Virus record (IMG/VR): IMGVR_UViG_3300012663_000707 | Span: 6,897-70,896 of that record | DNA from: a virus | Taxonomy: Duplodnaviria; Heunggongvirae; Uroviricota; Caudoviricetes | Direction: 5' to 3' (one strand) | DNA length: 64,000 nt | In this document: in pieces, positions 9,279 through 27,565 of the stretch | Layout: each line of letters starts with the position of its first letter | Numbering within the stretch: the first letter of the stretch is position 1 | Program-made: the position numbers and the translations under genes | The notes under the pieces: model-generated | The model's database searches: none | What the model saw: the letters and a program-made list of their open reading frames with translations, nothing else | Told to the model about the DNA's origin: nothing

Positions 9279-9280
9279 TA

Positions 9281-9718
9281 TTAGAATAATTTTTTAATGT
9301 TCTTTTTCTGTAAGATTCCAGTTCTAATATCCAATTCTTGGATTAGATCTTCTTTGTACACGTTTGATAATGAGCTATAAAACTTGTCGGCTTTAATGTC
9401 AAAATAAATGCATAATTCTGAGAATACATCGATGCGGCTATATTTAGCAACCATCTCATCGATTATGAAACCATAGATTTCATTGATGTCTGCTTTCTTA
9501 AGTTTTGTACATCTGCCTAGATCGTCAACATCATTAAATGATTTGAATCTAGAACCTTGTACTAGTGAATGGATTTGTCTAGCGATCATATCAAAATGGA
9601 TCCTATCCTCTTCGTCCATGCTACCTCTAAAATCTGATTCTACCTCAAAACTCATGTTTGGGTTTACATCATATTCAGGTGCATCGAAACTGTTGTTAAA
9701 AATTTTGTCGTGTGCCAT
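9281..9718 (-). CDS. hypothetical protein (145 aa)
   Basis: ORF in the operon between sbcD and the helicase. Confidence 0.45.
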   Translation of the reverse strand: MAHDKIFNNSFDAPEYDVNPNMSFEVESDFRGSMDEEDRIHFDMIARQIHSLVQGSRFKSFNDVDDLGRCTKLKKADINEIYGFIIDEMVAKYSRIDVFSELCIYFDIKADKFYSSLSNVYKEDLIQELDIRTGILQKKNIKKLF

Positions 9719-9719
9719 T

Positions 9720-11036
9720 TTAAATGCTGTGTATGTTTGAATTTGTAATTTGATCTGTCTCTATTAAACGCATATAATTATAATCGATATTTAATTTACA
9801 TTTAACACCTTTACCTTCACCATCCCTGATCTTTAGGATTTTAAGCCAATACTCTAGATTTGCTTTCATGATGTCGTCTTGAATAATACCTAGCATAATA
9901 TCTGCAGTGTGTGAAAGACCTGCAGATTCTGCAACATCACCCATTGAAATATCTGATGAATTATAAGCGCCTCTAGTAATCTGTGTTGCTGTTACAATTA
10001 ACCAGTTGTTACGAATACCCATTGCTCTAAGATCTTCTGCAATTTGCTTGATCTTCATATAAGTATTTTCCGTATTTGGGTTTCTGTAGTTTGCCAAGAT
10101 ATTGATGTAGTCAATTACAACTGCACCAATCTTAATTTGTTTCTCCTCTTCAATTTGACTTACATAAGCTTCAATATCTAATACTGTTGCTTGTGAAGTA
10201 GGAAACTGTTTAACAAATAATTGACCTGGAGGTGTAAAGCCAGTACCAACCGTTTCTAATCTACGTTTGATGTGTTCTTTATTCTTTGACTTCTCAGCAT
10301 AATCATTAATGTTAATGCTTAATAGATTAGAACCGATACGTTTAACGAATTTATGTGCTGCCATCTCCGCAGTAACTACTACAGTATTTGTACCCATTTT
10401 AACAAAACTTGCAGCATCATTTGCTAAGAAGATTGATTTACCGATATTCTGTTCACCAGCATAAACGATTAAGTTTCCACCTTTGTCATATCCACCAGAT
10501 AGCAATCTATCGATGAAGTTATAACCAGAACTAACTTTATCAGTATCTTTCTGGTCGTGTGCGTCTGGATCAAAGAAATCTAAACCTAAATCTGAATTGA
10601 AGGTTAGATTATTACGATCGTTGATTAAGCTTTTTACCTTTTGGATAATACTATCTGCGTTATCTGGCGTTACCTGAGTTGTTTTAATGAACTCAATTGT
10701 ATCAATCAATGAAGTATCGAAGGTTCTCCACTTAATCCATGATTCAGCAGTTGAGGTTAACCATTCGTCATCATACTGGTCTAGATCTGTATTAAAGATC
10801 ATATCCATCATTGAATCGGAAATCTTATCCTTGGCTTTGCTTGAATGCTGAACAAGAAGTTTTAATTGCTCTTTGGAAGGTGTCTCATTAAACTTTGCAT
10901 AGAACTTATTGGCAAGATAACTTAACACATCGATTTCTTCAGATGTATAATATCCTGTCTTTATCGTCTGTAAATATTTAGGCTTATGTAGTGATAGCTT
11001 AAAAAAGATCTTCTCAAATTCTTGTCCGAATTGCAT
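9720..11036 (-). CDS. DnaB-like replicative helicase (T4 gp41-like)
   Basis: C-terminal RecA-fold with Walker A LIVYAGEQNIGKS and Walker B VVIDYINIL. Size and position are consistent with a gp41-type helicase. Confidence 0.7.
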   Translation of the reverse strand: MQFGQEFEKIFFKLSLHKPKYLQTIKTGYYTSEEIDVLSYLANKFYAKFNETPSKEQLKLLVQHSSKAKDKISDSMMDMIFNTDLDQYDDEWLTSTAESWIKWRTFDTSLIDTIEFIKTTQVTPDNADSIIQKVKSLINDRNNLTFNSDLGLDFFDPDAHDQKDTDKVSSGYNFIDRLLSGGYDKGGNLIVYAGEQNIGKSIFLANDAASFVKMGTNTVVVTAEMAAHKFVKRIGSNLLSININDYAEKSKNKEHIKRRLETVGTGFTPPGQLFVKQFPTSQATVLDIEAYVSQIEEEKQIKIGAVVIDYINILANYRNPNTENTYMKIKQIAEDLRAMGIRNNWLIVTATQITRGAYNSSDISMGDVAESAGLSHTADIMLGIIQDDIMKANLEYWLKILKIRDGEGKGVKCKLNIDYNYMRLIETDQITNSNIHSI

Positions 11037-11059
11037 ATTTTTATGTTGTTATGTTCTAA

Positions 11060-11377
11060 TTAAAGTGACGTTGCGTCATCAAACGGATTGATTAAAATCT
11101 TATACGCTTGTTTTCCGTCTTCATTGCACGTTTGTTCGATAAGACCTAATTTAATAAGTTCATCTAATGATTGTATGAGATGATCTTGTTCTGTTTCTGG
11201 AAACCTATATGTTTTCAATGCATGTAAAGTGAAAGAACCTTTGTATCGGTCCGGACTTTTCACACACATTCTAACTTCATTATATAGAATATCAAAACTG
11301 CCAGGATAACCCGGCAGTTCTTTTTCTATACCCAAGATATACTTAATAGGTATGTTGTCTTCGTTAATCTTCATCAC
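11060..11377 (-). CDS. hypothetical protein (105 aa)
   Basis: ORF between uvsX and the helicase; overlaps the uvsX end. Confidence 0.4.
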   Translation of the reverse strand: MMKINEDNIPIKYILGIEKELPGYPGSFDILYNEVRMCVKSPDRYKGSFTLHALKTYRFPETEQDHLIQSLDELIKLGLIEQTCNEDGKQAYKILINPFDDATSL

Positions 11378-12479
11378 CGATTTCGATTAATTCTTCAATA
11401 TCGATCTCATCAACTGATGTGTTATAATTAAAGATACTGTAAATTTTCTTATCGATCTTCTCAAGAACTTCTTGTGTAAATACTTTTTCAGTAAAGAATT
11501 CGTGGTTTTGTACTACTTCATCTAAGTGTTTACAGATCCAACCTCTTGCAGTTGCTTTAGGTACTTTAACACCTTTCTCGATTGATCCTTTAGCAATACC
11601 GATTTCATCCCAGTCAATGTATTGTTCTAGACCTACAAATCGGTTCATACCTTTTGAAAAGTCTAAGTGGAATTTAACAGGAGTTGGTTTTGCGAAACGA
11701 TTCTTGTTTGGTTTTGCAGTTACAATGATACCAGTCTTTTCTCCACCTTCTTTAAGTTGTGCTTTGTTCAAGAACAAAACGATTGAAGCTGCATACTCAG
11801 GTCCAGTTCCACCACCAGCAACTTGACGACTAATAAAGTCTTGTGTTTGGTATGTGTGGTTTGTAAATAAGAAAGGAATCTTAAGATCTGCCATTGGTGT
11901 CATGATAATTCTAAAGATTGATTTAAGTACTTTAGATCTAGTCATGTCAGATTTATCTGATCCAGAAGCTGCATCATCAATTTCTTTTTGTGTTGCCAAG
12001 TTACCAGCAGAATCTAAAATAATCATTACTTTAGGAATGCTAGCTCCAGCTCTTTTAGCCTCTTGCATTCTTCTAGTAATTGAAGTTACTGAAGTTCTAA
12101 ATTCTTGTACCGTGTTGATTGGTTGGTAGTTTACTTTAGTAGTATCAATACTGAAGTTCTCCATTAAAGTTTTATCGACAGCTGCTTCTGAATCATAAAA
12201 GATTACATTGTAGCCCATGTCGATTGCTCTTTTAATAGAGTTAAGGATTAGGTATGTCTTACCAGTTCCTGAAGGTCCTGCAATTGAACAAGATCTATTA
12301 TTAGGCCAACCACCGAAAAGTGATCCGGAGACACATGCGTTTAAATTGTAATTTCCAGTGTCGATCCATTCTGTAACTTCACTGAAATTTGATTGATCCA
12401 TTACGGATCCCATTGGGTTTAACTCTGCCAACTCTTTGTTGATGTCGTCAAAACTGAATTCTGATAGTTTCTTTGCCAT
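11364..12479 (-). CDS. uvsX: UvsX/RecA-family recombinase
   Basis: Walker A CSIAGPSGTGKT; RecA-like core IFYDSE...ILDSAGNLAT. Confidence 0.85.
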   Translation of the reverse strand: MAKKLSEFSFDDINKELAELNPMGSVMDQSNFSEVTEWIDTGNYNLNACVSGSLFGGWPNNRSCSIAGPSGTGKTYLILNSIKRAIDMGYNVIFYDSEAAVDKTLMENFSIDTTKVNYQPINTVQEFRTSVTSITRRMQEAKRAGASIPKVMIILDSAGNLATQKEIDDAASGSDKSDMTRSKVLKSIFRIIMTPMADLKIPFLFTNHTYQTQDFISRQVAGGGTGPEYAASIVLFLNKAQLKEGGEKTGIIVTAKPNKNRFAKPTPVKFHLDFSKGMNRFVGLEQYIDWDEIGIAKGSIEKGVKVPKATARGWICKHLDEVVQNHEFFTEKVFTQEVLEKIDKKIYSIFNYNTSVDEIDIEELIEIGDED

Positions 12480-12486
12480 AATAGTT

Positions 12487-12666
12487 TTACTCTGCGTTTG
12501 GAAATAGTTTATTTTCTAAGTCTCTTAATTCCTGTAGTTCTGACAGAATGTCCGCTGCTGCATTTTTCAGTTCTACCATTCTAAATTCAATATCACTTAG
12601 TTTAGTGTAGAGCTGTTGATATTTTGCGACATGCTCTGCTTGTTCTGGTGTTAGATTAAGATCCAT
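12487..12666 (-). CDS. small hypothetical protein (59 aa), predicted helical
   Basis: Manual translation: MDLNLTPEQAEHVAKYQQLYTKLSDIEFRMVELKNAAADILSELQELRDLENKLFPNAE. Not in the ORF track (below the size cutoff) and sits in an otherwise empty 175-bp gap. Confidence 0.3.
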   Translation of the reverse strand: MDLNLTPEQAEHVAKYQQLYTKLSDIEFRMVELKNAAADILSELQELRDLENKLFPNAE

Positions 12667-12797
12667 GTTGATTTTTTTGTTCGAGTTCAGTGATAAGTTT
12701 TCTAACTTTATCTCCTAATTCATAATTGTTTGGGTGTGCTTTTGCAAGTTGTATTAACTCGTCAAGAGTAACTGTGATTTGCGATTGCTCTTCCATA

Positions 12798-13040
12798 TTA
12801 TTCTTTGTCTTTGTTTTCGTAATCCTCGTTGTAATCTTCGATAGCTCTGTATTTTTGTAAGTAGCTTTGGTATGCGCCAAACATAAAATATGCAAATCCA
12901 CCAATAAAAATTACTTCAAGTACTGTGGTTCCATAAGATTTAACTAACCAGAAGAAACCGGTCATCCCTAATGTGATCAATAAGAAAAGTCCTACTGTTG
13001 ATAAAAGGGCTTTGAATTGTGGTGTTTTAAAATAACTCAT
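12798..13040 (-). CDS. small membrane protein (80 aa, two predicted TM helices)
   Basis: Hydrophobic stretches LLSTVGLFLLITLGMTGFFWLV and VLEVIFIGGFAYFMFGAY. Confidence 0.4.
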   Translation of the reverse strand: MSYFKTPQFKALLSTVGLFLLITLGMTGFFWLVKSYGTTVLEVIFIGGFAYFMFGAYQSYLQKYRAIEDYNEDYENKDKE

Positions 13041-13042
13041 AA

Positions 13043-14251
13043 TTAAAAAAGTGCTGATGCGTAAATAAGATTAGTGTCTAATGTTTGAAGACCAATTGCT
13101 GAAAGAACTCTATTCAAAGGATCGATCATTGATTTCTCGAATTGAATGTCATAATCTACAGGTGGTGCAAATTCATAAGGATGTTCGTTAGGTAGATATG
13201 CATACATCTCTGATATTGGAGACTTGCAATGATAGATCTTTAACTTTTCACCGTTATTAATTACCTTATATTTGGTCTTGTATTTTGTGTTGTTATTCAA
13301 CAAGTAATTGTAGTAACCTGCTGCTTTTACGTTTGCTGGACATTTAAGTCCAATTTGAAGTTCGATCTGATCATCCACAATATACTTATCAATGTTGTTT
13401 GTTCTCTTATTAAAAGAGATGTCATCGATATTTGCCATGTGGAATTCTTTCTTAGTCTCTTTCATGAAGACAACCAACTTCTCTAAATCTGTTGCTGTTG
13501 GTTTAAAGCCGCTTGTAAAAATAAGCTTAAGTGCAGCTACAAGTTTCTCACGAACAAACTTTGGTGTTGAAGATTGAATGGTATCATATCCGATTGTCTT
13601 AACCTTCTTTAAAGGTGGATGACGGTCTGTTGTTTCAAGTTTGTCATCCCATGCAATATTTTGGATATACTTTTTCTTTGCAAGCCAGATACCGTTATAT
13701 GCAATAGTCTCAAGTTCAAATACCAAGAAGTTGTCTGTGTTTCTTTTGTCAGCATAACGCTCCATGGATTTAACAATGTATTCCTTTAGTCTAAAGTGAT
13801 ACAAAGCTAAGATGAATACATCAATGCTCATCTTCTTCTCTTCGTCTAGCCAAACAATTGATTCATACATATCTTGAAACTGAACGTAACAAGAATCTGT
13901 GTCAATGTAAATTACCGCAGGCTTTTCTACTTTACCTTTAACTTTAAGTCCAAACTGTTTATGTACAAGTTCGTCTTTATGCCAAAAGTCATTTACATAT
14001 TTGTTTAAGACTGCTTCGGAATAAAGGATTGCATTCTTACCTTGCTTGGTAATAGATTCTGCAATATTAATGTTAAAGAAGTGGAACCATTTATTACCGA
14101 AAGCTCCGTAGATTGAATTTAGAGTCAGTTTAACTGCTTGTTCATACGCAGTGTACTTAGCAGAAAGCTGCTCATAGTGTTCTATGAGCAGCTCCGCTTC
14201 TTCTTTTGAAAGTTGATCGACTGGTTTATGTTCTAACTCTGTAATATTCAT
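13043..14251 (-). CDS. family-B DNA polymerase, C-terminal fragment (motif B to thumb)
   Basis: Motif B KLTLNSIYGAFGN (KxxxNSxYG) and motif C IYIDTDSCYV (YxDTDS). Begins immediately downstream of the clamp-like gene. Confidence 0.8.
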   Translation of the reverse strand: MNITELEHKPVDQLSKEEAELLIEHYEQLSAKYTAYEQAVKLTLNSIYGAFGNKWFHFFNINIAESITKQGKNAILYSEAVLNKYVNDFWHKDELVHKQFGLKVKGKVEKPAVIYIDTDSCYVQFQDMYESIVWLDEEKKMSIDVFILALYHFRLKEYIVKSMERYADKRNTDNFLVFELETIAYNGIWLAKKKYIQNIAWDDKLETTDRHPPLKKVKTIGYDTIQSSTPKFVREKLVAALKLIFTSGFKPTATDLEKLVVFMKETKKEFHMANIDDISFNKRTNNIDKYIVDDQIELQIGLKCPANVKAAGYYNYLLNNNTKYKTKYKVINNGEKLKIYHCKSPISEMYAYLPNEHPYEFAPPVDYDIQFEKSMIDPLNRVLSAIGLQTLDTNLIYASALF

Positions 14252-14254
14252 CTA

Positions 14255-14998
14255 TTAAGCAGTTTGGCAAGTTGATATAGTTAACAAAGTTTCTGAGTCA
14301 TTAGATTGGAATACAACCTTTGATCCTGAAACGTATACCGTTTGCTCTTCGCGATCTAATAGATTTAAATATTTTTTATAGACTGTAACGTCACCGTTAC
14401 CTTTTGAGTCTGGATTTACTACCACGTTAAATGTTTTACCTTTAACATTAACACCGGTTGTGCTTGAGTTGATGCTAAATGTTTCGTCTTTATCCAAACT
14501 GAATAAGTTCTTAACTTTAGTCAACATGTGGTTATCAATACCGAATGAGAAAGTGCTATTATCTCTAGCGAAGATTGCATTTACTTGATCTTCAGTAAGA
14601 TCTTTAAATCCTAAAGATGGTTCTGAACAAGAAAGTGTAATTTCCAACTCATCGTTGTAGATTCTAAATGTAGAAGCAACTAAGTCTTCTTCATTTTCAA
14701 TGAATTCGATTTCACCTTTAATAGCATCATGGTCGAAGTGCTTAATAGCTTCAATAACTTTGTTACCTTCAAAGAATGCAATTTTCATTTCTTTGTCAGT
14801 ATCCGGCCATTCACTTACTTGCAAGATAGTATCTGCGGAAACAGAGTGTGACTTAACAGCATCACGTTGTGGTAAGTACACAGTAGATTGAATTCTACCA
14901 TTAGAAACTTTCATATAGATGAAAGAATCAATTAATTTAACGCGACTGATAAAATCGGTTAGTGCATGTTGGTCAATGCGATCAATTTTTAACTTCAT
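14255..14998 (-). CDS. sliding clamp candidate (T4 gp45-like)
   Basis: 247 aa; N-terminus MKLKIDRID...LTDF...YMKVSNGRIQSTVY parallels gp45 MKLSKD...LKNF...IMTRAVNGTTY. Size fits a clamp. Confidence 0.45.
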   Translation of the reverse strand: MKLKIDRIDQHALTDFISRVKLIDSFIYMKVSNGRIQSTVYLPQRDAVKSHSVSADTILQVSEWPDTDKEMKIAFFEGNKVIEAIKHFDHDAIKGEIEFIENEEDLVASTFRIYNDELEITLSCSEPSLGFKDLTEDQVNAIFARDNSTFSFGIDNHMLTKVKNLFSLDKDETFSINSSTTGVNVKGKTFNVVVNPDSKGNGDVTVYKKYLNLLDREEQTVYVSGSKVVFQSNDSETLLTISTCQTA

Positions 14999-15038
14999 TT
15001 TTTTTATTTTTTGTTTATTGTTTTATGTGAAACTTAAC

Positions 15039-15974
15039 TTAATGTTTCACTGTGAATTCTTCTTTAACAGCATTGGCAGCTTCTAGGAAATCTAATTGAC
15101 TTACTAGTTCCATACCGATTGCTGCTTGTGCTTCAATTGTAGATCCTGCGATATGAGGAGTTACGATAATTCTTGGATTGTTTAATAGTCTTTCGTCTGG
15201 TGTTGGTTCACCTACAAAAGTATCTAAACATGCTCCAGCAATTGTGTTAGTTCTGATTGCATCTATCAAATCTTGCTCATTTACACAACCACCTCTAGAA
15301 CAGTTGATGATAATTGCGTTATTTTTCATTTTAACAATATCATTTGAGTTCAATACTTCGGCTTTACCAGAGATATGAATTGTTATGAAATCAGATTCTG
15401 CTAAAAGTTGTTCCTTTGAGACAAAAATACTGTCATCAATTGATGAAATATATGGATCGTGGATTAATACTCGCATTCCATTTGCAGATGCAAGTTTAGT
15501 TACTTCTTTTCCAATGTTACCATATCCGATAACTCCAAGTGTTTTACCGTATACTTGAGTAGAACATTCTAGATCTTTTTTCAATTCTTTGAAGTTCTCA
15601 GTGGATAAAGTAGTTGTTGCTGTATGGATATGTCTAGAGCTTGTATAAATATAACCGATTACAAGTTCTGCAACTGAACGAGAACTAGCTTTTGGCGTAT
15701 TGTAAACGTTTCTTCCAAGTTCTTTTGCTGCATCTAGGTCTATATTATCTAGACCAACTCCAGCTCTACCAATAAAGATTAGTCCTGGGCAAGCTTCCAT
15801 AAGTTCTCTAGTAACTTTAGTTGCTGAACGTACCAATAGACATTCTATATTTTTAAGGTTAATAAATGTTGCTAATTCTTCTGGATTTATTTTACCAGTG
15901 AAAACAGTATGACCTGCTTTTGTAAAGGCTTTAATGGCTTCTGTATCAAGACCATCATTCGCTAAAATGTACAT
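15039..15974 (-). CDS. D-isomer-specific 2-hydroxyacid dehydrogenase family (SerA/phosphoglycerate dehydrogenase-like)
   Basis: NAD-binding GVIGYGNIGKEV...D, catalytic region NCSRGG, and HIAGST; 311 aa. Confidence 0.8.
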   Translation of the reverse strand: MYILANDGLDTEAIKAFTKAGHTVFTGKINPEELATFINLKNIECLLVRSATKVTRELMEACPGLIFIGRAGVGLDNIDLDAAKELGRNVYNTPKASSRSVAELVIGYIYTSSRHIHTATTTLSTENFKELKKDLECSTQVYGKTLGVIGYGNIGKEVTKLASANGMRVLIHDPYISSIDDSIFVSKEQLLAESDFITIHISGKAEVLNSNDIVKMKNNAIIINCSRGGCVNEQDLIDAIRTNTIAGACLDTFVGEPTPDERLLNNPRIIVTPHIAGSTIEAQAAIGMELVSQLDFLEAANAVKEEFTVKH

Positions 15975-16027
15975 ATAAAAAGATTAAGATTATTTAGTAA
16001 TTATACGTTGAAACTAGTAAAAGTTTC

Positions 16028-16063
16028 ATAAAAAAAGGGCAAGGAGTAGCGAATTCCTTGCCC
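16028..16063 (-). terminator. rho-independent terminator after nrdA
   Basis: Minus strand GGGCAAGGAATTCGCTACTCCTTGCCC followed by TTTTTTT. Confidence 0.55.
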
Positions 16064-16117
16064 ATGTCCGAAACTATTTCGGTCCTAAGAAGTGGTTTTT
16101 ACACCACCACTATCTTT

Positions 16118-17947
16118 CTAACCATCGCAACTTAAACAGTCTGGGTTCATTGCTGCACTAGCAATATCTCCTCTAAGAACTGATTCTGTTCGCATATAAT
16201 AAAGAGTCTTGATTCCTTGTTTATAAGCTTCAAGATGTACTTGATTAATAAACTTAGGTTCTGCCTCTTTTGGAAAAGCTAGATTTAATGAAACTGCTTG
16301 GTCTACGTATTGTTGACGAATTCCAGCTTGTTTTACTAGATCTAGTTGGTTAACTTCTTTAAATGTTTTATAAACCTCTGCTAAAGGTACATACTCTGTT
16401 TTTTCCATATCAGATAGAGTATCGTATTTCTCTTTAGTGATTGGTTTATTATTTTTGTCGTCAATATGAGTTGCATGTTTAACAAAGTAATTCTCAATCC
16501 AAGATAATCCATAAACTGATCCTTCGTCTGCAAGTATTTGATCCCAAGTTTCTTTAGTATCTTTACCGATTTTTGATAGAGTTCTTTGTAACGTTGGGTT
16601 TTTACGAATGAATGTTCCTTTTGCTGTTTGTTCTGTGAAAACGTTAGCGGCCCAAGGTTCAATACCAGCAGATACATTACCGCTTAACTTTGAGTTGCTT
16701 ACAGTAGGTGCAATGGCTCTGAGGTGTGTGTTTCTCATTCCAGTACCAACACACCAAAGTGGTTCACCGAATTCTTGTGCCATATCTCTACTTGCTCTTT
16801 CAGATTCAATTTTGATTTGACTAAAAATCTTTCTAGTTTCAAATTGTGCAGTTAAACCTTCAAACGGAATGTTACGTTCTTGTAAATATGAATGCCATCC
16901 AAGAACTCCAAGCCCTAATGCTCTACCTTTTTCTGCAGAACGAACTGAGTTTTCAAAGCCTCTCATGTATTTTGCCTTAGTAATAAATTCTTCTAAGACT
17001 CCATCCAAGAACCAAGTTGCTGTGTAGATTAGATCTGTATCTTTCCATTCGTCATACTTAGTTAAGTTAACTGAAGATAGACAACAAACAAATGAATGGT
17101 TTTCATCGGTGTGTAACGTAATTTCAGAACAGATGTTAGTCATATAAACTTTCAATCCGTTTTGTTTGTAAGCGTCTGGATTAGCACGATTGACATTACC
17201 TTTGTACATGATGTAAGGCTCTCCTGTAGTTCTGCGTTTACGCAATACAGCTGCCCATCTTTTTCTAGCTTCTTTATCTCCTGCTTCTAATTTAGCCATA
17301 AAGCTATCAGAAACAATAACACATTGGTGGATATTCAATGATTGACGATTAACATCACCTTTAGGTTCTCTAATTTCTAACCATTCCCAGAAATCACCAT
17401 GCTCAATATCAATGTTAACTGATGCTGCACCTCTACGAACCGAACCTTGATTAGTTGCAAGAATTGCAGAATCATAGATTTTAATAAAAGGTACAACTCC
17501 ATCTGAAGTTCCGTTACCTTTGATCTTAGCTCCAGCTGGACGAATCATATTAACTCCGATTCCAACTCCACCACCATGCTTTGCAAGTAACATCATCTCT
17601 CTAGTTTTAGTTCCAATCTCATCAATTGAATCTCCTACATCCATACCGAAACAAGAAATAGGAAGACCTCTTTCAGTACCAGTGTTAGATAGAACTGGTG
17701 AAGCTAGATTTAACCAACCTCTCCAAATATAATCAAAGAACTTACTAGCAAGTTCTGGTTTATTTAAACGCTTTGCAGCTGTTGCTGAAACTCTCCAATA
17801 AGCATCTCTTGGTACTTCTCCTTCTAGAAGATAGCCACGGCTAATTGTTTTAATGTAAATTTCTGTATTACCCCATGTAGGAAAATCCACACCTATTTCC
17901 CAGCCTAATGCTTCGCCATGGTTAATTGTATTGTCTTCTTTTGTCAT
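16118..17947 (-). CDS. nrdA: ribonucleotide reductase large subunit, class I (NrdA-like, no obvious ATP-cone)
   Basis: Active-site NICSEI (C-x-E), upstream cysteine region PISCFGMD, and C-terminal redox pair CLSCDG. Confidence 0.85.
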   Translation of the reverse strand: MTKEDNTINHGEALGWEIGVDFPTWGNTEIYIKTISRGYLLEGEVPRDAYWRVSATAAKRLNKPELASKFFDYIWRGWLNLASPVLSNTGTERGLPISCFGMDVGDSIDEIGTKTREMMLLAKHGGGVGIGVNMIRPAGAKIKGNGTSDGVVPFIKIYDSAILATNQGSVRRGAASVNIDIEHGDFWEWLEIREPKGDVNRQSLNIHQCVIVSDSFMAKLEAGDKEARKRWAAVLRKRRTTGEPYIMYKGNVNRANPDAYKQNGLKVYMTNICSEITLHTDENHSFVCCLSSVNLTKYDEWKDTDLIYTATWFLDGVLEEFITKAKYMRGFENSVRSAEKGRALGLGVLGWHSYLQERNIPFEGLTAQFETRKIFSQIKIESERASRDMAQEFGEPLWCVGTGMRNTHLRAIAPTVSNSKLSGNVSAGIEPWAANVFTEQTAKGTFIRKNPTLQRTLSKIGKDTKETWDQILADEGSVYGLSWIENYFVKHATHIDDKNNKPITKEKYDTLSDMEKTEYVPLAEVYKTFKEVNQLDLVKQAGIRQQYVDQAVSLNLAFPKEAEPKFINQVHLEAYKQGIKTLYYMRTESVLRGDIASAAMNPDCLSCDG

Positions 17948-18192
17948 TTTTTATTTAATATATTATCAATGCGTTGTTCGACTTCGTGTGAGTCTATTGT
18001 GTTTGGACTACAATAAAATCTACTGTAACCCCATTTTTCTTTTATCTGTGAATATGAAAATTCAGGAACCTTTACAAATTCCTGAAACTTTTCATCCAAA
18101 TATTTAACTACTTCTGCATCATCTATTGCTAAACCATAGTGTCTTGGTTCTAAATATGCTTCGTATTTTTTATTAAATTCTTTACTAGTCAT
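17944..18192 (-). CDS. hypothetical small protein (82 aa) between nrdB and nrdA
   Basis: ORF with a 4-nt ATGA overlap into nrdA. Confidence 0.4.
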   Translation of the reverse strand: MTSKEFNKKYEAYLEPRHYGLAIDDAEVVKYLDEKFQEFVKVPEFSYSQIKEKWGYSRFYCSPNTIDSHEVEQRIDNILNKK

Positions 18193-18194
18193 TC

Positions 18195-19196
18195 TTAATC
18201 AAATAAATCGTCTTCGTCCCAATTTTCATCTTCTCCTGATTTTGCATAATCAGTAGGTCTAATTGCAAAGAAGTCAGTATGTGTATGTCCTCCAGTTAAA
18301 TGGTAAAACCAATCTAATTCTGCAGCCATTTCTTTGTCATATTCAAATGCAGATTCGTAACCTAACTCAATTAATTTCTCGTTGGTTCTCTTGTTGATAA
18401 ATTCTTTAAGATCATTTGGTTTAAGATTTTCCAAATCACCCATTTCAAAGATCTTATCAATAAATTTGTGTTCCATTTGACGCATTAGATCTGCTGCTTG
18501 TAATACGTCTTTATATACCTCTTGTTTCAACTCTGGAAACTCTTCACACATATGTCTGAATAACTGGCATCCCATTTTAGAGTGCAGTGATTCATCTCTA
18601 ACTGACCATTTCATTTGTTGGCCAATTCCTTTTAATAGATTTCTCATTTGGAATGAGTAAAGTACTGCAAACGAAGAATACAAAGATACTCCTTCTGCAA
18701 ATGCACTAAAGATTGCTAACGATCTAGCAACTTGTTTTCTTGCTCTTGCATTTGTAGCAAGATCTTCATGAGTCCAATCCGCTTCAACTGAAGTTAAATG
18801 TTCAAACTTCTCTGCGGTTGCAGGTTCATGTAAGAATGCAGAAAAATCATCTAATCCTAATGTCTCATTTAAATATGAGTATGCTGTGGCATGGATTGTT
18901 TCTTGTGAACCAAACATCATTGCCATTTGGCGAATCTCATGTTTTGGAAACCATTTGGTAACCATATTAGTCCAGTAATCAGAAACAGCACATTCTGTTT
19001 GTGCAAAACCTAGTAAAATGTTGCCGACCAGGTTCTTTTCATGCTCTTCTAATCTCTCGTTCCAATCTTTAACATCACCTTGCATTGAAATCTCCGTATG
19101 GAGCCAAAATGCCTGGGCTTGTTTTAACCATCCTTCGGTATAATACTCAGGGTATTCGAATGGTTTATATTCTATTCTTTCTGTAAATAATGACAT
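18195..19196 (-). CDS. nrdB: ribonucleotide reductase small subunit, class I (NrdB)
   Basis: Ferritin-like di-iron motifs (ETIHATAYSY, EGVSLYSSF, ESLHS) and an acidic aromatic C-tail ...DEDDLFD. Confidence 0.85.
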   Translation of the reverse strand: MSLFTERIEYKPFEYPEYYTEGWLKQAQAFWLHTEISMQGDVKDWNERLEEHEKNLVGNILLGFAQTECAVSDYWTNMVTKWFPKHEIRQMAMMFGSQETIHATAYSYLNETLGLDDFSAFLHEPATAEKFEHLTSVEADWTHEDLATNARARKQVARSLAIFSAFAEGVSLYSSFAVLYSFQMRNLLKGIGQQMKWSVRDESLHSKMGCQLFRHMCEEFPELKQEVYKDVLQAADLMRQMEHKFIDKIFEMGDLENLKPNDLKEFINKRTNEKLIELGYESAFEYDKEMAAELDWFYHLTGGHTHTDFFAIRPTDYAKSGEDENWDEDDLFD

Positions 19197-19260
19197 TTGC
19201 TAATATTTTTTTATTTTTAACCATAGACCAAAAAAGGTCCTCTTTTCAGTAGACCCATTC

Positions 19261-19344
19261 TAACCTCGATCGAGCAATTCAATAAAAATACTAGCAGCGC
19301 TGCTTGTATTCTATATATCAACGTCTCGATCGAAATTGAGGTTA
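19261..19344 (-). promoter_or_regulatory. structured intergenic element: nested palindromes between the polymerase N-fragment and nrdB
   Basis: taacctcgatcgag (19261-19274) pairs with ctcgatcgaaattgaggtta (19325-19344). A perfect 12-nt palindrome agcagcgctgct sits at the centre (19294-19305). Confidence 0.35.
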
Positions 19345-20745
19345 TGATCTGAATTTTTTCTTTAATTCATCTGCTTTTGTGTAGTAAGAATAAGATGTTT
19401 TCTTGTAATCTTTACGTTGAGCATATAGGTCACTTAAGATTAATTTTAACATTGAATCTTCTTTCTTATATACTACGCCATTTTCACAAACAATAATACT
19501 GTCATCTTTTCTTCTGGCTTCGATCTCTCTTTCTGGAATGATCTCAACATATGAATCGGGCGAGATATTAAATTGTCTCATGATCGAAGGATATAGAGAT
19601 GCAAAGTCAAACGCAGATACTCCAGAGTAATAACCGACAATTGGTTCTTTTACAAAGGCACCTTCATATTTGGTTTCTTTCTTACTATCTTCTTTATCAA
19701 ATTCAACTGCAATCTTCATATTAGAATCTACTAATTTTCTAGCAATTAATGATTCTGTTACTGCCACTGGAGATGCTGCTTTATATAGAGGCATTTTAGT
19801 GATCGTAGCTAATGTAAGTAGTACTTCCATTGATCTTAGTTTACGGTCAATATAGTAAACCAACACGGAATCGACTACGTTATAATATACAAATTTTGTA
19901 AAGTTATCACGATATAGATCTTGTAGAGATCCAGTATATTTGATCTTGCTTACATCCAATACTTGACCAGATACAAAGTCTAATGAGCTGGATTCTTTAA
20001 CAGCAACACTACGGTCATATTTGTCATAAAGTTGCATGTAATCTAGGATTCCCATATGTAATGGTCTACTGTCTGCTTTATCTAAAGCTCCAGTGATTGC
20101 AACTTCAGTAAGATCGATTTGTAGTCTTTTACATCTATTTACAATATACTGCCAGTCATAGTTGATGAAATTCCAACCAGTCATCATTGGAAACTTAGGT
20201 AAGAACTTATGCAAGAATGTATACAACATATTGTACTCATCCTTAAATTTGTAATACGTAAATGTCCAATCTTGATCTAGGTCTTTGAAGTGTGCGTTTG
20301 TATCATCTTCGATCTTTTTAATATCTGCAGCAGATAGATCTTCTAGTCCAAGTACAATTGCTTTACGTTCTGGTGTGATAATTGAGAAGGTTAAAATCCT
20401 ACTCTTAGCTTCTTCTGGCTTTGGAAAACCATCTACGATTTCTGTCTCAATATCGACATAATACGTTCTAGGCATATTGAACTCATAGATCTCATTACGA
20501 TCTTCTTCAGGCAATGAATCCATAAAATACAATAGACTGAACTTGTTAAAAGATCTAGCTCTATTTTTCTTAATGGATCGACCATCCCAGTTTTTAAAAC
20601 GTTGGTCTTTATACTTGTCATTATCTTCTGCAATTACCCAATTTTGGAATTCTTTTACTGGGTATCTTTTGAAGGCAACTTTACCTTCACGATCGTAATA
20701 AGAAACGATCAGTTCTTTTTCGGTTTGTTCAATGTCTAATAGCAT
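19342..20745 (-). CDS. family-B DNA polymerase, N-terminal fragment (3'-5' exonuclease domain through motif A)
   Basis: Exo I YYVDIETEI, an Exo II-like YNVVDS block, and polymerase motif A FDFASLYPSI. Ends in a stop after motif A; motif B resumes in 13043..14251. Confidence 0.8.
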   Translation of the reverse strand: MLLDIEQTEKELIVSYYDREGKVAFKRYPVKEFQNWVIAEDNDKYKDQRFKNWDGRSIKKNRARSFNKFSLLYFMDSLPEEDRNEIYEFNMPRTYYVDIETEIVDGFPKPEEAKSRILTFSIITPERKAIVLGLEDLSAADIKKIEDDTNAHFKDLDQDWTFTYYKFKDEYNMLYTFLHKFLPKFPMMTGWNFINYDWQYIVNRCKRLQIDLTEVAITGALDKADSRPLHMGILDYMQLYDKYDRSVAVKESSSLDFVSGQVLDVSKIKYTGSLQDLYRDNFTKFVYYNVVDSVLVYYIDRKLRSMEVLLTLATITKMPLYKAASPVAVTESLIARKLVDSNMKIAVEFDKEDSKKETKYEGAFVKEPIVGYYSGVSAFDFASLYPSIMRQFNISPDSYVEIIPEREIEARRKDDSIIVCENGVVYKKEDSMLKLILSDLYAQRKDYKKTSYSYYTKADELKKKFRS

Positions 20746-21212
20746 TAATAATTATTCTTTTGGCGATTAACATTCTCTTCAGCTTTTGCAAAATAATAGT
20801 TGTATGCTGTCTTAGCATCTAAACCGATTGATGCTGCATAATTAATAAAGAAGTGTAGAATGTCTACCCATTCCATATATAATTCTTTCTTGTCGCCTTC
20901 AGATAGATCTGAAACTTTCATTGTTTCGTACTTGGTAAAGTCTTTCTTCCAGTATTTCCATACTGCATTTCCACTACCATCTTTAATACCACCAAGTGCA
21001 TCTGTCATCTCGTGGATTTCATCAATTACTGCGTGAGTGTTAACATGCCAGAAGTTCATTACTTCTCTAAGTGTCATGTCTTCGAATTTAAAACCATAAG
21101 TCTGCTCTTGCATCTTTTTTTGGTTTTCCATTATATCTGCTAAATGTGTTGTTGATTGGTCGTAAAAATCTTTTACATCAAGATCTTTACATTCGTTGTC
21201 TATGTTTGCCAT
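20745..21212 (-). CDS. MazG-like all-alpha NTP pyrophosphohydrolase
   Basis: EIHE ... EWVD spacing matches the MazG ExxE...ExxD metal-binding pattern; 155 aa. Confidence 0.45.
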   Translation of the reverse strand: MANIDNECKDLDVKDFYDQSTTHLADIMENQKKMQEQTYGFKFEDMTLREVMNFWHVNTHAVIDEIHEMTDALGGIKDGSGNAVWKYWKKDFTKYETMKVSDLSEGDKKELYMEWVDILHFFINYAASIGLDAKTAYNYYFAKAEENVNRQKNNY

Positions 21213-21263
21213 TATCTTTTATTTAGTTTAATACAGTTAATATGTCTTAAGTTTCATGTATTT

Positions 21264-22160
21264 TTACAAGTCGGTGTCGTTTACTTGACCCCAATCTCTA
21301 TAAGAATCTGTGATCAATTTCGTCTCTGCATTCTCAGGTTTTGGATCTCCACCTACATTCCAGAACCAAGCTCCAGGATTACCATGTGTCTTCATGAATT
21401 CCCATGCCTTTGCATCATAATTAAGTGCTGATGGAAATGGTGGCATGAATTTAGCGTCTACATTTTGACTAAATTCTTTTGGATGTGACCAAACTTTAGC
21501 TCTTCCTAGTTCACCATCTTTAATGTTACGTGCAACAGCAACTGCATTAAAGTCTGCGTTAGGCCATGCGATTTGTAGGGCTCTTGATAGAACTCCAGTA
21601 GAAATAGCAGACCAAACTTCTTTAGGTTCTCCATGTTTCTGTGCAAGATCATAAGCTACTCGAACTGCTGCTGCAGTTACCAACTCGTGTCTTAATCCAA
21701 GTGGAATAAAGAATGCATTGTTTTGTTCTGCCCATTTTTTAGCATGTGCATTTAGAACTGGCATTGCTGCAATTCGTTGAAACTTCATCTCAGCTCCTCT
21801 TTCAATACAAATTGCTTGGTGGTCTGAGATCTCTTGTTGACTAGGACTGAAAAGTACAAGTTTCTTATTGTACTTATTTGCAAGATAAGCCAATGAGATT
21901 CCTGCAAATCCATATCTAGGCTGTACGTATACCAGTGTGTCTGATTGCGCGTTCTGAACTAAGATGTCACCAAATCTACATTTAGATCCAAAGCCCATCA
22001 TATCTTCTCTAACTACGTTAAATCCATCATGTTCTGTTATAATCGGATCTGGAAATGGATCTTTCCAATCTCCTGCTAACTCTAACCATGCATCTCTATT
22101 CGGATACATTAGATTTAAATCCTGGTTAAAGTTCTTTTTAGTGTGTTGATTATGCGACAT
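21264..22160 (-). CDS. hypothetical enzyme-sized protein (298 aa)
   Basis: Conserved-looking glycine-rich blocks (GFGSKCRFGD, GAWFWNVGGDP); no confident family assignment. Confidence 0.5.
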   Translation of the reverse strand: MSHNQHTKKNFNQDLNLMYPNRDAWLELAGDWKDPFPDPIITEHDGFNVVREDMMGFGSKCRFGDILVQNAQSDTLVYVQPRYGFAGISLAYLANKYNKKLVLFSPSQQEISDHQAICIERGAEMKFQRIAAMPVLNAHAKKWAEQNNAFFIPLGLRHELVTAAAVRVAYDLAQKHGEPKEVWSAISTGVLSRALQIAWPNADFNAVAVARNIKDGELGRAKVWSHPKEFSQNVDAKFMPPFPSALNYDAKAWEFMKTHGNPGAWFWNVGGDPKPENAETKLITDSYRDWGQVNDTDL

Positions 22161-23367
22161 ATAATTTTGCTACTTTGTTTTTATACTCTTCAACGCTTAC
22201 TCCAGCTTCTACTAAAATTTTATCATCCGATGGGTGGTTTGCCATCCCATTAAATGTTTTTATTAGACCTAGATCCAACATTGCTTTTTGTCTACCGTAT
22301 GGATGGTCTAGAATTGTTGAACTGTTCCAGATTTTATCCATATCAATATGGTTGTAATTAGCACCTGGTTTTAAATAATTCTCAATCCAACGAATAAAGT
22401 CACATGCAACGTCCTCAGCATTATAAGGTAGACTTCCAGTGTCCTCATAGATTCTATTCATTACTGCATCTAAGAAGTCTGTACTTCCTTTACCTTTGCC
22501 ATTCAATGGATCTGCTAAGTAACCAATACATTCCGTTGCGTTTGTTCCATAATAGAACATACTGTCTCTATGAATAAATTCAGGAAACCAATCAGCAACA
22601 TCTGCAATTACTGCAGCATACTGGAATCTATAAACTCTAAGTCCATTTGCTTGATTCCAAGCAAACATCCAATCGCCAAGTTCACGAAGTGTTTTCTTTT
22701 CACCTTGCTGCAAATAAGTTGCCATCTCTCTTGCAAGTCTAGGTGCATATTCGCAAAGATAGTAATCGCCACCTCTTTTATAAGTGTAGTCTTGGTTTGT
22801 AAAACCGGACATGCCGATGAATAAATCATCAGCGTGAGTTGGTTGAGGTGGCTTTGGAAATGCTGGAAACTGATAACCTACCGAAGTATAAAATGGTTTA
22901 TCATAACCTTTGATCACTTCACACATTTGCTCGATTGTATCTGCTTCATGTAAGTGAAATAGAATTGTGTTATGGTATCCAGATGGTTTGGTTGCATAGT
23001 TAATAGCAGAACCAGTAACTCGATGTAGAATAAATAGGTAAAGCCAATCTGCTAGATCTAACGTATTTCTTTTACCGGTCCAGTTATTTGCAACCGTATT
23101 TCGTTGTGGATGAATCTTACCGGCTTTCATATGTTCCCAATAAGGGTGTTCTTCTGACCAACCGTAAAAAATGTCATTTACTATTTGACTGAAACCCGCA
23201 TATTTACGTTCCACCACATCGTATAAGTGAATGTGTTCCATTAGATCATCATTCATACCACTTTCTTCATGTGGTACCATACCTAAGTTAGAAAGTTCTT
23301 GCTGTTTTAAAGCAAGATCAAAATACCTTAGGAATTCGTCGTAATATTTTGTTGTTTTAATCTCCAT
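22150..23367 (-). CDS. hypothetical protein (405 aa)
   Basis: Long ORF overlapping its neighbours by a few nt (operon packing); no confident motif. Confidence 0.5.
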   Translation of the reverse strand: MEIKTTKYYDEFLRYFDLALKQQELSNLGMVPHEESGMNDDLMEHIHLYDVVERKYAGFSQIVNDIFYGWSEEHPYWEHMKAGKIHPQRNTVANNWTGKRNTLDLADWLYLFILHRVTGSAINYATKPSGYHNTILFHLHEADTIEQMCEVIKGYDKPFYTSVGYQFPAFPKPPQPTHADDLFIGMSGFTNQDYTYKRGGDYYLCEYAPRLAREMATYLQQGEKKTLRELGDWMFAWNQANGLRVYRFQYAAVIADVADWFPEFIHRDSMFYYGTNATECIGYLADPLNGKGKGSTDFLDAVMNRIYEDTGSLPYNAEDVACDFIRWIENYLKPGANYNHIDMDKIWNSSTILDHPYGRQKAMLDLGLIKTFNGMANHPSDDKILVEAGVSVEEYKNKVAKLYVA

Positions 23368-24443
23368 TAGAAAAGTGCTGATGTAATTTGTCTGTGTTCA
23401 AGCTTTTTGTTAGGTTCGTTCTTAACGAGATCCCAACGATAATATTCTCGTGCAATATGAACTGACTTAGGTTTTTCCATCACTTCAAAATCCAATTCTC
23501 CGATTGAATTCTTGTAGACTGAAGGATGTTCCCAAGTTGACCAGCCATTTCTATTGCACATGTCTTTGATCATTCGATTAAAGTTGTGTACCAATTCTGT
23601 TCGTTCAGCCCAAGTGCCAATGAAAGGCGTTCCTTTGTAGAAACCAGTCTTAGGTAAGACTCTGCTTTCGTTTTCAATCGGTAATGCTTGAACTACTTCG
23701 ATCTCTTTAATACACAATTGCTTCAATTGTTGTTCGTAATCCAAGACCATTTTTTCTAGTGATTCCAAAGGTTTACTTTGACGCATCAAGTGGTGTCTAA
23801 TATCGATATTGCCCAAGTAGATTCTTAACGTTGTGATCGAAGGATCTACAAATGTATTAATACCTTTCTTTAAAGTACCGAATAGAGTCATACCATCATT
23901 ACGGTCACACATATAACCTGGAGTGTACTGGCTGAATGAATGGCTATCACCGAAGCATAGACTATTGGTTTGTTCAATCATGTCTACACGTTGAATCTTT
24001 GAGCAAATTGAGATTGCATCTTCAATTCTAGACTCTAACGTTTTAAACAATTCGGAACCAGTCTTTAATCTACCTTTGATTAGATCACCTACGTTCGGCA
24101 TGTCATGGTGCAGTGAATACATTCTAGTACCTTCGGTAAATAGACGATTGACTTGGTGATATAAGTCATCGTTTGCTCCACCGAAGATATTAAAGGTACC
24201 TTTGTATTCCATGCCATGTTCGATTAAGATCACATCGTAATCAGACCAATCTGTTTCAGTCTTGGTGATAACTTCAGCATTCTTATAACCTGCACTCCAC
24301 AACTGGTTGCACAACATATGTGCCCAACCAGATTTATGTGAACTTAACTTCTCGCTTAGTTTTCCAACAAGTGCTGAAATACCAACTCGAATGTTTTTAT
24401 CTGACTCATAGTCAGTAAAGAATTTAGATTCCGCTATTTGCAT
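23367..24443 (-). CDS. two-domain protein with C-terminal SGNH/GDSL-hydrolase-like motif
   Basis: SLCFGDSHSF resembles the GDSx block I of SGNH hydrolases; the N-terminal domain is unassigned. Confidence 0.45.
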   Translation of the reverse strand: MQIAESKFFTDYESDKNIRVGISALVGKLSEKLSSHKSGWAHMLCNQLWSAGYKNAEVITKTETDWSDYDVILIEHGMEYKGTFNIFGGANDDLYHQVNRLFTEGTRMYSLHHDMPNVGDLIKGRLKTGSELFKTLESRIEDAISICSKIQRVDMIEQTNSLCFGDSHSFSQYTPGYMCDRNDGMTLFGTLKKGINTFVDPSITTLRIYLGNIDIRHHLMRQSKPLESLEKMVLDYEQQLKQLCIKEIEVVQALPIENESRVLPKTGFYKGTPFIGTWAERTELVHNFNRMIKDMCNRNGWSTWEHPSVYKNSIGELDFEVMEKPKSVHIAREYYRWDLVKNEPNKKLEHRQITSALF

Positions 24444-24828
24444 CTGATAAATCTATAGGTTTCTCTGTTTCTTTATAACCGTACTTTTTGATATAGTTGT
24501 CCAGACCTCCGATATATGCAACTGCATCTAATAAGTTATCTTCTTTGTAATTGTATGAATGTCTACTAAGTTTCAATGCAACTAATGCTGCATACATGTC
24601 TGCACCGGACCATTCTTTACCAGTCATACCTGAACAGATCATTGCGGCTCTACGCATACCCTCTTCAAAGGGACCGTACATACGTTCTTTTTCTTCTGAT
24701 CTGTGATTAATGATTTTGTCTGCTTCTTCTAAGATATTGCTCATATTTAATACTTTAAGTGTTATATGGACTAAGTTTGCTTTGTTTAGATATGTATATA
24801 AGAAAGCTGGGCAACGCGTTTCTTGCAT
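24424..24828 (-). CDS. hypothetical protein (likely start at internal MSNILEE)
   Basis: ORF in the operon. Confidence 0.4.
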   Translation of the reverse strand: MQETRCPAFLYTYLNKANLVHITLKVLNMSNILEEADKIINHRSEEKERMYGPFEEGMRRAAMICSGMTGKEWSGADMYAALVALKLSRHSYNYKEDNLLDAVAYIGGLDNYIKKYGYKETEKPIDLSDANSGI

Positions 24829-25698: not shown

Positions 25699-25701
25699 AA
25701 T

Positions 25702-27470: not shown

Positions 27471-27490
27471 ATGTTTATTGTTTTAATTTT

Positions 27491-27565
27491 GATATGTAAA
27501 TATAATCAATTTATTTTGATCCCGAAAACATTTTTCAATTTATTTTCAAAAAGTTATTAACAATC
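27491..27565 (-). repeat. intergenic cassette copy E5 (hairpin replaced by a duplicated AAAATAAATTGA segment)
   Basis: Shares the TTGTTAATAACTTTTTGAAAATAA and ATTATATTTACA boxes with E1-E4. Confidence 0.6.

Follow-up and report, generated by a model that had tools for sequence, protein, structure and literature searches.

The replicative family-B DNA polymerase (PolB) of a virus of the Caudoviricetes is encoded by two independent genes, with the cut at the tip of the fingers domain, and the two products very likely associate into a heterodimer. The genes lie in a stretch of 64,000 nucleotides (nt) of the IMG/VR virus record IMGVR_UViG_3300012663_000707 (positions 6,897 to 70,896 of the record), referred to here as the window, and coordinates are those of the window unless stated otherwise. 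The pair consists of two open reading frames (ORFs) on the minus strand, 19342..20745 (467 amino acids, aa) and 13043..14251 (402 aa), named polB-N and polB-C hereafter. polB-N is closed by a stop codon, polB-C opens with an ATG 3 nt past the stop codon of the gene upstream, and 5,090 nt separate the stop codon of polB-N from the start of polB-C. An earlier note on this DNA, made from the sequence alone, had described the first ORF as an exonuclease domain continuing through polymerase motif A to a stop codon, and the second as a gene with its own start carrying motifs B and C. Pfam matches, the motifs themselves and the codons at the gene ends support both descriptions. The features of the pair are the following.

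19342..20745, minus strand: polB-N, 467 aa; N-terminal domain, 3'-5' exonuclease, first part of the palm with motif A, first fingers helix
20440..20457, minus strand: Exo I, VDIETE, polB-N aa 97-102 (from translation)
20155..20172, minus strand: Exo II, NFINYD, polB-N aa 192-197 (from translation)
19870..19887, minus strand: Exo III, YYNVVD, polB-N aa 287-292 (from translation)
19585..19608, minus strand: motif A, DFASLYPS, with catalytic aspartate, polB-N aa 380-387
19342..19395, minus strand: N-side stump of the finger tip, last 17 residues (aa 451-467, TSYSYYTKADELKKKFRS region) and stop codon; the RB69 alignment ends at residue 488
13043..14251, minus strand: polB-C, 402 aa; second fingers helix, remaining palm, thumb
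14105..14131, minus strand: motif B, KLTLNSIYG, polB-C aa 41-49
13892..13909, minus strand: motif C, YIDTDS, with catalytic aspartates, polB-C aa 115-120
13667..13678, minus strand: KKKY motif, polB-C aa 192-195
13046..13069, minus strand: C-terminal tail LIYASALF of polB-C, candidate clamp-binding peptide (conservation 0.95 in 56 relatives)

The family-B signature is complete across the two proteins. Exo I (DxE), Exo II (NxxxFD-like), Exo III (YxxxD) and motif A are all found in polB-N, and motifs B and C together with a KKRY-type KKKY motif are found in polB-C. polB-N matches the Pfam families DNA_pol_B_exo1 (E 1.6e-11) and DNA_pol_B over profile positions 25-137, and polB-C matches DNA_pol_B over positions 151-237. 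The two profile ranges are complementary and do not overlap. Both halves are also collinear with a PolB of solved structure, RB69 gp43, in a phmmer search against the PDB. On these sequence grounds, polB-N and polB-C are confirmed to make up one complete family-B polymerase of the RB69/T4 gp43 type. A third polymerase-like ORF could make one of the halves redundant, as the earlier note had pointed out. A six-frame search of the window with both halves retrieved no third polB-like sequence, and a Pfam scan of 40 window ORFs revealed no other polymerase family.

The break lies at the tip of the fingers domain

The break can be placed by alignment to RB69 gp43. Residues 65-450 of polB-N align to RB69 gp43 84-488 (E 5e-33) and residues 32-339 of polB-C to 552-832 (E 3e-18; phmmer against the PDB). 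The ends left unaligned, aa 451-467 of polB-N (17 residues) and aa 1-31 of polB-C, correspond to RB69 489-551, which we take to be the fingers tip between the two long helices. In a multiple alignment, the breaks of the window pair, of phage 44RR2.8t and of Acinetobacter phage 133 fall in one loop, past the QRKxxKK helix and ahead of motif B. Judged by these alignments, it is the finger-tip loop that is cut. The pair thus shares its break location with the finger-tip split PolBs of the gp43A/gp43B type, and as in those it consists of two cistrons with their own starts and stops and without an intein or intron. The likeness to the split gene 43 of T4-like Aeromonas phages, proposed in the earlier note, extends to a break in the same loop.

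The finger-tip ends are the least conserved regions in both proteins among 56 relatives in which both halves could be paired (0.73-0.78, vs 0.86-0.98 elsewhere). The N-side stump has a conservation of 0.77 compared with 0.86 for the remainder of polB-N, and residues 32-60 of polB-C, around motif B, are the most conserved block of that protein (0.98).

Both halves are conserved and inherited together

The split is widespread. The N half was recovered in more than 120 protein clusters at 78-100% identity, drawn from JGI, ENA, Logan, Tara and NCBI data with contigs of up to 224 kb, and all of these proteins measure 440-475 aa (466-475 in nearly all cases). Searching IMG/VR with the C half identified 80 loci at 66-83% identity, 61 of which had enough upstream sequence to establish gene order. 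The order polB-N, nrdB, nrdA, clamp, polB-C, UvsX is kept in 61/61 of these loci, and the same layout is also found in a 224-kb contig. Among relatives, 3,660 to 5,778 nt separate the two halves, and 3 to 22 nt separate clamp and polB-C. In principle, a polymerase gene could appear divided through faulty assembly or sequencing, or be divided by a recent, inactivating rearrangement of one genome. We assign this a negligible probability given the more than 120 independent clusters with an N product ending at the same length, the identical order in every viral contig with enough sequence, and the presence of the split in the cultured phages PAU and MA9V-1. The two-gene layout is ancient and has become fixed in this lineage of marine jumbo phages.

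Strong purifying selection acts on both halves. Compared with a relative of 84% identity, dN/dS is 0.058 for polB-N and 0.069 for polB-C, as low as for nrdA, nrdB and clamp, with all values approximate as dS is near saturation. The 56 paired relatives always encode two ORFs, one of 466-475 aa and one of 400-405 aa. The two halves have diverged to an equal extent (19.3% for N and 19.2% for C), and their distance matrices are tightly correlated (Mantel r = 0.90, a value reached by 0/999 permutations). The halves are therefore inherited together.

The two proteins might nevertheless serve separate roles, with polB-N acting as a lone exonuclease and polB-C being a decaying or repurposed remnant, or the reverse. 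polB-N does contain a complete exonuclease domain (Exo I-III) that could in principle act alone, and the halves are apparently located in different transcription units. However, all catalytic motifs are kept, purifying selection is equally strong on both halves, and their divergences are tightly correlated. No other replicative polymerase was seen in the window either, which otherwise has a full T4-type replication set. Motifs A and C are jointly required for PolB catalysis, as established by biochemistry, and neither protein carries both. Separate roles thus have only a slim chance of being correct compared with the two halves acting as one enzyme.

Assembly in trans

The division of the active site has direct consequences for how the enzyme might work. 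The motif A aspartate is located in polB-N and the motif C aspartates in polB-C, so that polymerase activity would need both chains. Assembly in trans, as proposed in the earlier note, is the only workable reading given the divided active site, the co-inheritance of the halves and the precedents among other polymerases. We suggest that polB-N and polB-C associate non-covalently as a 1:1 heterodimer of normal PolB architecture. The main contacts would likely be formed where the two antiparallel fingers helices pack together, and where the two halves of the palm do. The loop at the finger tip is probably a permissive site, such that a cut at this position comes at little cost.

A single chain could still arise if the frames were joined after transcription or translation through ribonucleic acid (RNA) trans-splicing, ribosomal bypass or a split intein. 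The lineage has been exposed to elements of this kind, as intein-like sequence interrupts the C half at motif C in the huge phage LR756500 and the Lak megaphage Lak-B6. Where the two halves of the window pair would join, however, no trace of a fractured gene of the split-intein type was found; such a fracture is present at motif C in these two phages. The summed length of the halves (467 + 402 = 869 aa) equals that of the intact homologue P0124 and leaves no intein-sized extra sequence. The ends (...KKKFRS* and MNITELE...) lack a Cys/Ser/Thr nucleophile, an HN motif or intein splice motifs. Neither a group I nor a group II intron is indicated, since no Rfam family matches 12000..22000 at E <= 1 and the gap is protein-coding. 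The 5.1-kb gap itself is made up of coding sequence that is conserved and selected. The earlier note's rejection of both an intein and a group I intron is in agreement with these results. Joining in cis is further ruled out within the lineage by LR756504, with halves 280 kb from each other and on different strands, and by Lak-B6, with halves in reversed order. Joining of the frames is hardly credible on this evidence, and assembly of two separate chains remains the preferred reading.

Several points weigh against this reading. The association and activity of these two proteins are inferred, from sequence and from analogy with other polymerases. An AlphaFold2 prediction on an artificial fusion of the N and C halves, run without an alignment, had a pLDDT of 31.8 and was unusable, such that structural support comes from homology. 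The window of 64 kb is part of a genome that is probably 215-260 kb long, as judged from related contigs, and the search for other polymerases covers the window. A split mini-PolIII alpha was reported from this phage group by Iyer et al. (PMC7824862). The transcript structure outlined below is based on hairpin prediction alone. A consensus scan for promoters and terminators did not rise above shuffled sequence: neither of the two hairpins was listed, terminator-like sites were no commoner than in shuffled sequence, and promoter-like sites were fewer than in the shuffles.

Genes between and around the halves

The earlier note had placed nrdB, nrdA, a 2-hydroxyacid dehydrogenase and a clamp-like gene between the halves, together with terminator hairpins. 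All four genes are present, along with an 82-aa ORF that the note had omitted. Genes and predicted hairpins in and around the gap are listed from upstream to downstream.

20745..21212, minus strand: MazG/dUTPase-like NTP pyrophosphohydrolase; its stop overlaps the polB-N start (TAATG)
19229..19256, minus strand: predicted terminator-like hairpin GGGUCUACUGAAAAGAGGACC and U-run, within the spacer of 145 nt that follows polB-N
18195..19196, minus strand: nrdB, ribonucleotide reductase small subunit, 333 aa (Pfam Ribonuc_red_sm, E 2e-56)
17944..18192, minus strand: 82-aa ORF, no family match
16118..17947, minus strand: nrdA, ribonucleotide reductase large subunit, 609 aa (Ribonuc_red_lgC, E 6e-90, and Ribonuc_red_lgN)
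16030..16063, minus strand: predicted terminator-like hairpin GGGCAAGGAAUUCGCUACUCCUUGCCC followed by U7, after nrdA
15039..15974, minus strand: D-isomer 2-hydroxyacid dehydrogenase, phosphoglycerate-dehydrogenase-like, 311 aa
14255..14998, minus strand: sliding-clamp protomer of PCNA/gp45 type by predicted structure, 247 aa; stop 3 nt before the polB-C start
11364..12479, minus strand: UvsX-like recombinase, downstream of polB-C; the same synteny is found downstream of the intact polB of locus L008

The gap consists of a conserved core and a variable part. nrdB is present inside the gap in 61/61 relatives surveyed, and the MazG-like gene is located upstream of the N half in 51/61. The slot between nrdA and clamp (window 14999..16117) varies between 94 and 2,034 nt among the 61 relatives. 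The dehydrogenase has phosphoglycerate dehydrogenase as its top NCBIfam match, below the curated cut-off, and is missing from 80/80 related loci. The 82-aa ORF has no family match in Pfam or PHROGs and is likewise missing from 80/80 related loci at E <= 1e-8. Both the dehydrogenase and the 82-aa ORF are thus cargo of a variable slot and specific to the strain. Variable cargo, in the window the dehydrogenase, apparently gathers between nrdA and clamp.

The clamp identity of the 247-aa ORF comes exclusively from structure prediction and a fold search. The ORF has no match in Pfam or PHROGs, and a four-sequence profile searched against PDB sequences produced a chance match only (E 0.32). The AlphaFold2 model, based on 31 homologues, has a pLDDT of 75.6 and a pTM of 0.74. 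In a Foldseek search of this model against the PDB, the top 50 matches are all PCNA or beta clamps (E ~1e-10 to 1e-8), the best with E 2e-10, probability 1.00 and TM ~0.6. The model thus has the two-domain protomer fold of PCNA/gp45-type clamps. A comparison with PAU gp109 retrieved a weak similarity (20% identity, blastp E 0.016). The clamp-like label given in the earlier note is upheld in that the 247-aa ORF is a PCNA-type clamp by predicted fold, with ring formation and polymerase binding putative. The C-terminus of RB69/T4 gp43 binds the clamp, and by this analogy the LIYASALF tail of polB-C is a candidate clamp-binding peptide. The clamp might therefore bind polB-C through this conserved tail.

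Expression of the two halves is probably uncoupled, judging by gene spacing and predicted hairpins. Clamp and polB-C are tightly packed with a 3-nt spacer and are probably co-expressed. polB-N is coupled to the MazG-like gene and then followed by a terminator-like hairpin, such that the two halves probably stem from different transcripts. polB-N would be transcribed together with the MazG-like gene and separately from a transcript that carries clamp and polB-C. The terminator hairpins reported in the earlier note are recovered as predictions when the spacers are folded, with z = -3.9 for the spacer after polB-N and z = -4.9 for the spacer after nrdA compared with shuffles. Hairpins similar to the one after polB-N (GGTCT...AGACC followed by a T-run) are found in the corresponding spacers of 14/45 distinct relatives. 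No Shine-Dalgarno-like sequence is visible ahead of either polB start.

The spacer after polB-N also contains an inverted repeat, CCUCAAUUUCGAUCGAG ... CUCGAUCGAGG, in window 19265..19341 (minus strand) upstream of the terminator-like hairpin. The repeat forms a stem of ~13 bp around a second hairpin, and the spacers of relatives hold similar palindromes centred on GCAGCGCTGC.

Split and intact polymerases in the wider clade

A megablast search of the 9-kb region against phage genomes produced no match, hence there is no close relative in that collection. By tblastn, the nearest sequenced genomes are the huge phages LR756500-LR756504 and LR745206, the Lak megaphages, Sphingomonas phage PAU, and Chryseobacterium phages MA9V-1 and MA9V-2. 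T4-like phages are reached only at ~28% identity. PAU encodes gp105 (487 aa) and gp110 (404 aa, with the note 'DNA polymerase'), which flank a dUTPase, two unknown genes and also gp109. Kazlauskas et al. recognised gp109 as a clamp resembling T4 gp45 (PMC4889955). The MA9V-1 paper names ORF135 and ORF138 as two polymerases and does not comment on a split (PMC10537231). The split is therefore not peculiar to the window genome and is visible in the GenBank annotation of PAU and in the MA9V-1 paper. The clade of split-polB phages appears to infect mostly Bacteroidota, with Chryseobacterium, Tenacibaculum and Prevotella as hosts of cultured or assigned relatives.

The huge phages and Lak-B6 differ widely in the arrangement of the halves. 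LR756500 has the order N half, homing-endonuclease-like gene, intein-ridden ribonucleotide reductase (RNR), clamp and C half. In LR756504, the N ORF ends at the finger tip and the C ORF starts far away on the other strand; the halves of this 636-kb genome (LR756504.1) are located near 255.9 kb (L009) and at 538-539 kb (L010). LR756502 and LR745206 have halves ~100-130 kb apart. Lak-B6 (MK250025.1) has both halves on one strand, with the C half upstream at a distance of ~6 kb; C and N halves are at 34592..30864 and 24633..23188, respectively, of stretch L011 (MK250025.1 485000-533000).

Some of these polymerases are fragmented further. In LR756500.1, a 462-kb huge phage, the C half is broken at motif C (8784..12184 and 16360..20531 of L001, 240000-272000 of the genome). 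The pieces are an ORF ending in ...GVYIDTDS with an intein-N-like tail, a 567-aa homing-endonuclease-like ORF, and an ORF with an intein-C-like start (...VHNS|CYLAF). The polB of this phage thus consists of three pieces, separated by one plain split and one 'fractured gene', and the RNR large subunit nearby is broken likewise. At motif C, the C half of Lak-B6 is interrupted by 2.7 kb of sequence whose ends are intein-like (...ILAHNS|IYVEFG).

Intact relatives were retrieved as well. The search with the N half was exhaustive over 1.84 billion representatives, and the 121 best clusters with a complete N part were compared. The product stops just past the first fingers helix in 100/121 clusters (447-575 aa) and runs on into the C part in 21/121 (747-990 aa). 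Three intact forms were checked and have no internal stops. Intact forms are dispersed on a neighbour-joining tree with 19 parsimony state changes, on a tree that is noisy (30-40% identity) and has split T4-likes as outgroups, such that the direction of change is not decidable from it. Related phages with an intact polymerase, for which the earlier note had suggested a search, thus exist. The scatter of intact polB genes might reflect fission or re-fusion events that recurred at the finger tip.

The closest intact homologue, P0124 (locus L008, JGI 3300010357 contig, 10001..12610), is 869 aa long. The gene order at this locus is nrdB, nrdA, NUDIX, clamp homologue (37% identity), intact polB, UvsX, DnaB, Mre11 and Rad50. 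A second intact relative, P0145 (L092, 10001..12634), encodes 877 aa and is likewise preceded directly by a clamp homologue. What sets the window apart from L008 is essentially the location of the N-coding part upstream of nrdB. As the adjacency of clamp and polB is common to intact and split genomes, the C half would be in its ancestral position and the N half displaced. The changing position of the N half in the huge phages fits a displaced N half. The earlier note had pictured a far larger insertion than in the T4-like phages. The size comparison stands, with a gap of 5.1 kb exceeding 49 nt and 2.9 kb, but insertion is probably the wrong picture for a displaced N half. In topology, inserting 5 kb into polB is no different from moving the N half across the nrd-clamp block, and the gene orders favour an old rearrangement over a recent insertion.

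The finger-tip split might be ancestral to a large clade of jumbo, mega and huge phages, in which case the ~20 intact polB genes among ~100 split lineages would be re-fusions. We regard this scenario as rather doubtful. If it were correct, the finger tip would be a reversible fission and fusion point of a replicative polymerase, with possible effects on nucleotide selectivity. The window lineage would then represent one stable and abundant marine example, and the N half a mobile piece.

Whether the split is adaptive is a related question. An open finger tip could alter nucleotide selection, e.g., of modified deoxynucleoside triphosphates (dNTPs), or separate genes could allow independent dosage or timing of the halves. 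Split Pfu polymerase tolerates gamma-phosphate-modified nucleotides, only together with Q484R, and the authors speculated that the same might apply to natural splits (PMC3061061). The cultured relative PAU was reported to have extensively modified DNA (PMC7824862), and the split persists across a very large clade. However, no nucleotide-modification pathway was identified beside the window genes. Intact and split forms are interleaved, as expected for a nearly neutral state, and the finger-tip ends are the most weakly conserved parts of both proteins. An adaptive split is unlikely on balance, even more so than an ancestral one.

Comparison with known split polymerases

Splits of gene 43 into gp43A and gp43B are known from Aeromonas phages 44RR2.8t, 25, 31 and 65, and from Acinetobacter phage 133 (Petrov et al. 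2006, 2010, as summarised in PMC3061061). These resemble the window pair in being a PolB of a T4-type replisome cut at the finger tip, with motif A in the first product and motifs B and C in the second, and with an own start and stop codon for each half. Genes 43 and 43B of 44RR2.8t are separated by a gap of 49 nt, and 43A and 43B of phage 133 by 2.9 kb holding eight small ORFs. Phage 133 thus shares with the window the presence of unrelated genes between the halves, small ones in its case. The window gap is larger at 5.1 kb and holds core replication and nucleotide genes (nrdAB and clamp), whereas the T4-like gaps hold small unknown ORFs. The split is fixed in a very large clade in the window lineage compared with a few isolates among the T4-likes. 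Common descent with the split genes of the Aeromonas and Acinetobacter phages is not indicated, as identity to T4-like gp43 is ~28%, T4-like gp43 is mostly intact and the window lineage forms a separate clade. By these comparisons, the window split is almost certainly independent of the T4-like event.

PAU gp105/gp110 and MA9V-1 ORF135/ORF138 fall within the broad PolB clade of the window pair, with 31-32% identity to the N half, and have the same finger-tip break. PAU also shares the clamp gene (gp109) directly upstream of the C half. In both phages, the two halves are already annotated as DNA polymerase. Their gaps are shorter (~2.2-2.4 kb), and that of PAU holds a dUTPase and unknown ORFs rather than nrdAB.

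Among jumbo phages, phiKZ (Chimalliviridae) encodes DNAP-N (gp82) and DNAP-C (gp50), which form a stable 1:1 RB69-like complex by cryo-electron microscopy (PMC13648687). As in the window, a jumbo-phage PolB is encoded by two distant genes with motif A in the N chain and motif C in the C chain. The phiKZ break is in a large clade-specific palm insertion rather than at the finger tip, and the phiKZ enzyme, with 1,369 aa, is far bigger. phiKZ is also without a canonical clamp and has an RNase H-clamp subunit instead, in contrast to the PCNA-type clamp predicted for the window phage.

Tolerance of a break at the finger tip has direct proof from Pfu polymerase. With a cut near the finger tip and each fragment expressed on its own, the refolded enzyme retained wild-type kinetics and performance in the polymerase chain reaction (PCR; PMC3061061). 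The C fragment folds only with the N fragment (PMC3061061). The split is artificial, bicistronic and of an archaeal enzyme, though. A natural archaeal split is found in Methanothermobacter thermautotrophicus, with halves 85 kb apart and the break in the palm, ~83 residues beyond the finger-tip site. In the literature searched, whose coverage is incomplete, we found no discussion of a split PolB for the clade of the window phage, only annotation. The window pair would thus be of a known kind, a PolB split at the finger tip into two co-acting cistrons, with the independent occurrence, the larger clade and the larger gene-filled gap being new.

Implications and remaining gene content of the window

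The findings reveal no new mechanism. They bear on annotation, as the two ORFs would be subunits of one essential enzyme, and naming one a truncated polymerase and the other a second polymerase would be incorrect. A large, abundant and uncultured marine lineage joins the natural two-chain PolBs along with PAU, MA9V-1, Lak and the huge phages. Across this wider group, halves are ~2 kb to 280 kb apart and even reordered. Half-length PolB matches in metagenomes are not necessarily fragments, which matters for marker-gene phylogenies and is useful for gene callers and genome-completeness tools. Enzyme engineering might find here a source of natural self-assembling polymerase halves.

The T4-type set of the window includes a gp32-like single-stranded DNA-binding protein (SSB), UvsW, a DnaB-like helicase, UvsX, the clamp and Mre11/Rad50-like proteins. 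Among ORFs of at least 120 aa, 48/50 are on the minus strand, and the two on the plus strand are located inside minus-strand ORFs. GC skew is negative in nearly all 1-kb windows. The strand bias, the GC skew, the lack of Shine-Dalgarno-like sequence and the hosts of cultured relatives suggest a Bacteroidota host for the window phage.

Just upstream of the MazG-like gene and polB-N, a 405-aa ORF (22150..23367) overlaps by 11 nt a PLP-dependent gene (21264..22160, threonine-dehydratase-like, phrog_7093). The 405-aa ORF was considered as a thymidine-hypermodification enzyme, which would have tied the split to modified DNA, and this assignment was dropped with no match in Pfam, PHROGs or NCBIfam and no tblastn match among 50,697 phage genomes. 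A nucleotide- and NAD-related cluster spans 25216..37597 and comprises the following genes.

25216..25698: nucleoside 2-deoxyribosyltransferase-like gene
25968..27470: NAMPT/NAPRTase
27557..28015: YqeY
28437..29378: Thg1-like tRNA-His guanylyltransferase
29871..30785: PRPP-synthetase-like gene
35759..37597: cytidylyltransferase-like domain protein

Near the start of the window, a 157-aa ORF (551..1024) encodes a TnsA-like endonuclease N-terminal domain (E 3.5e-18) and is possibly a free-standing homing or restriction-type nuclease.

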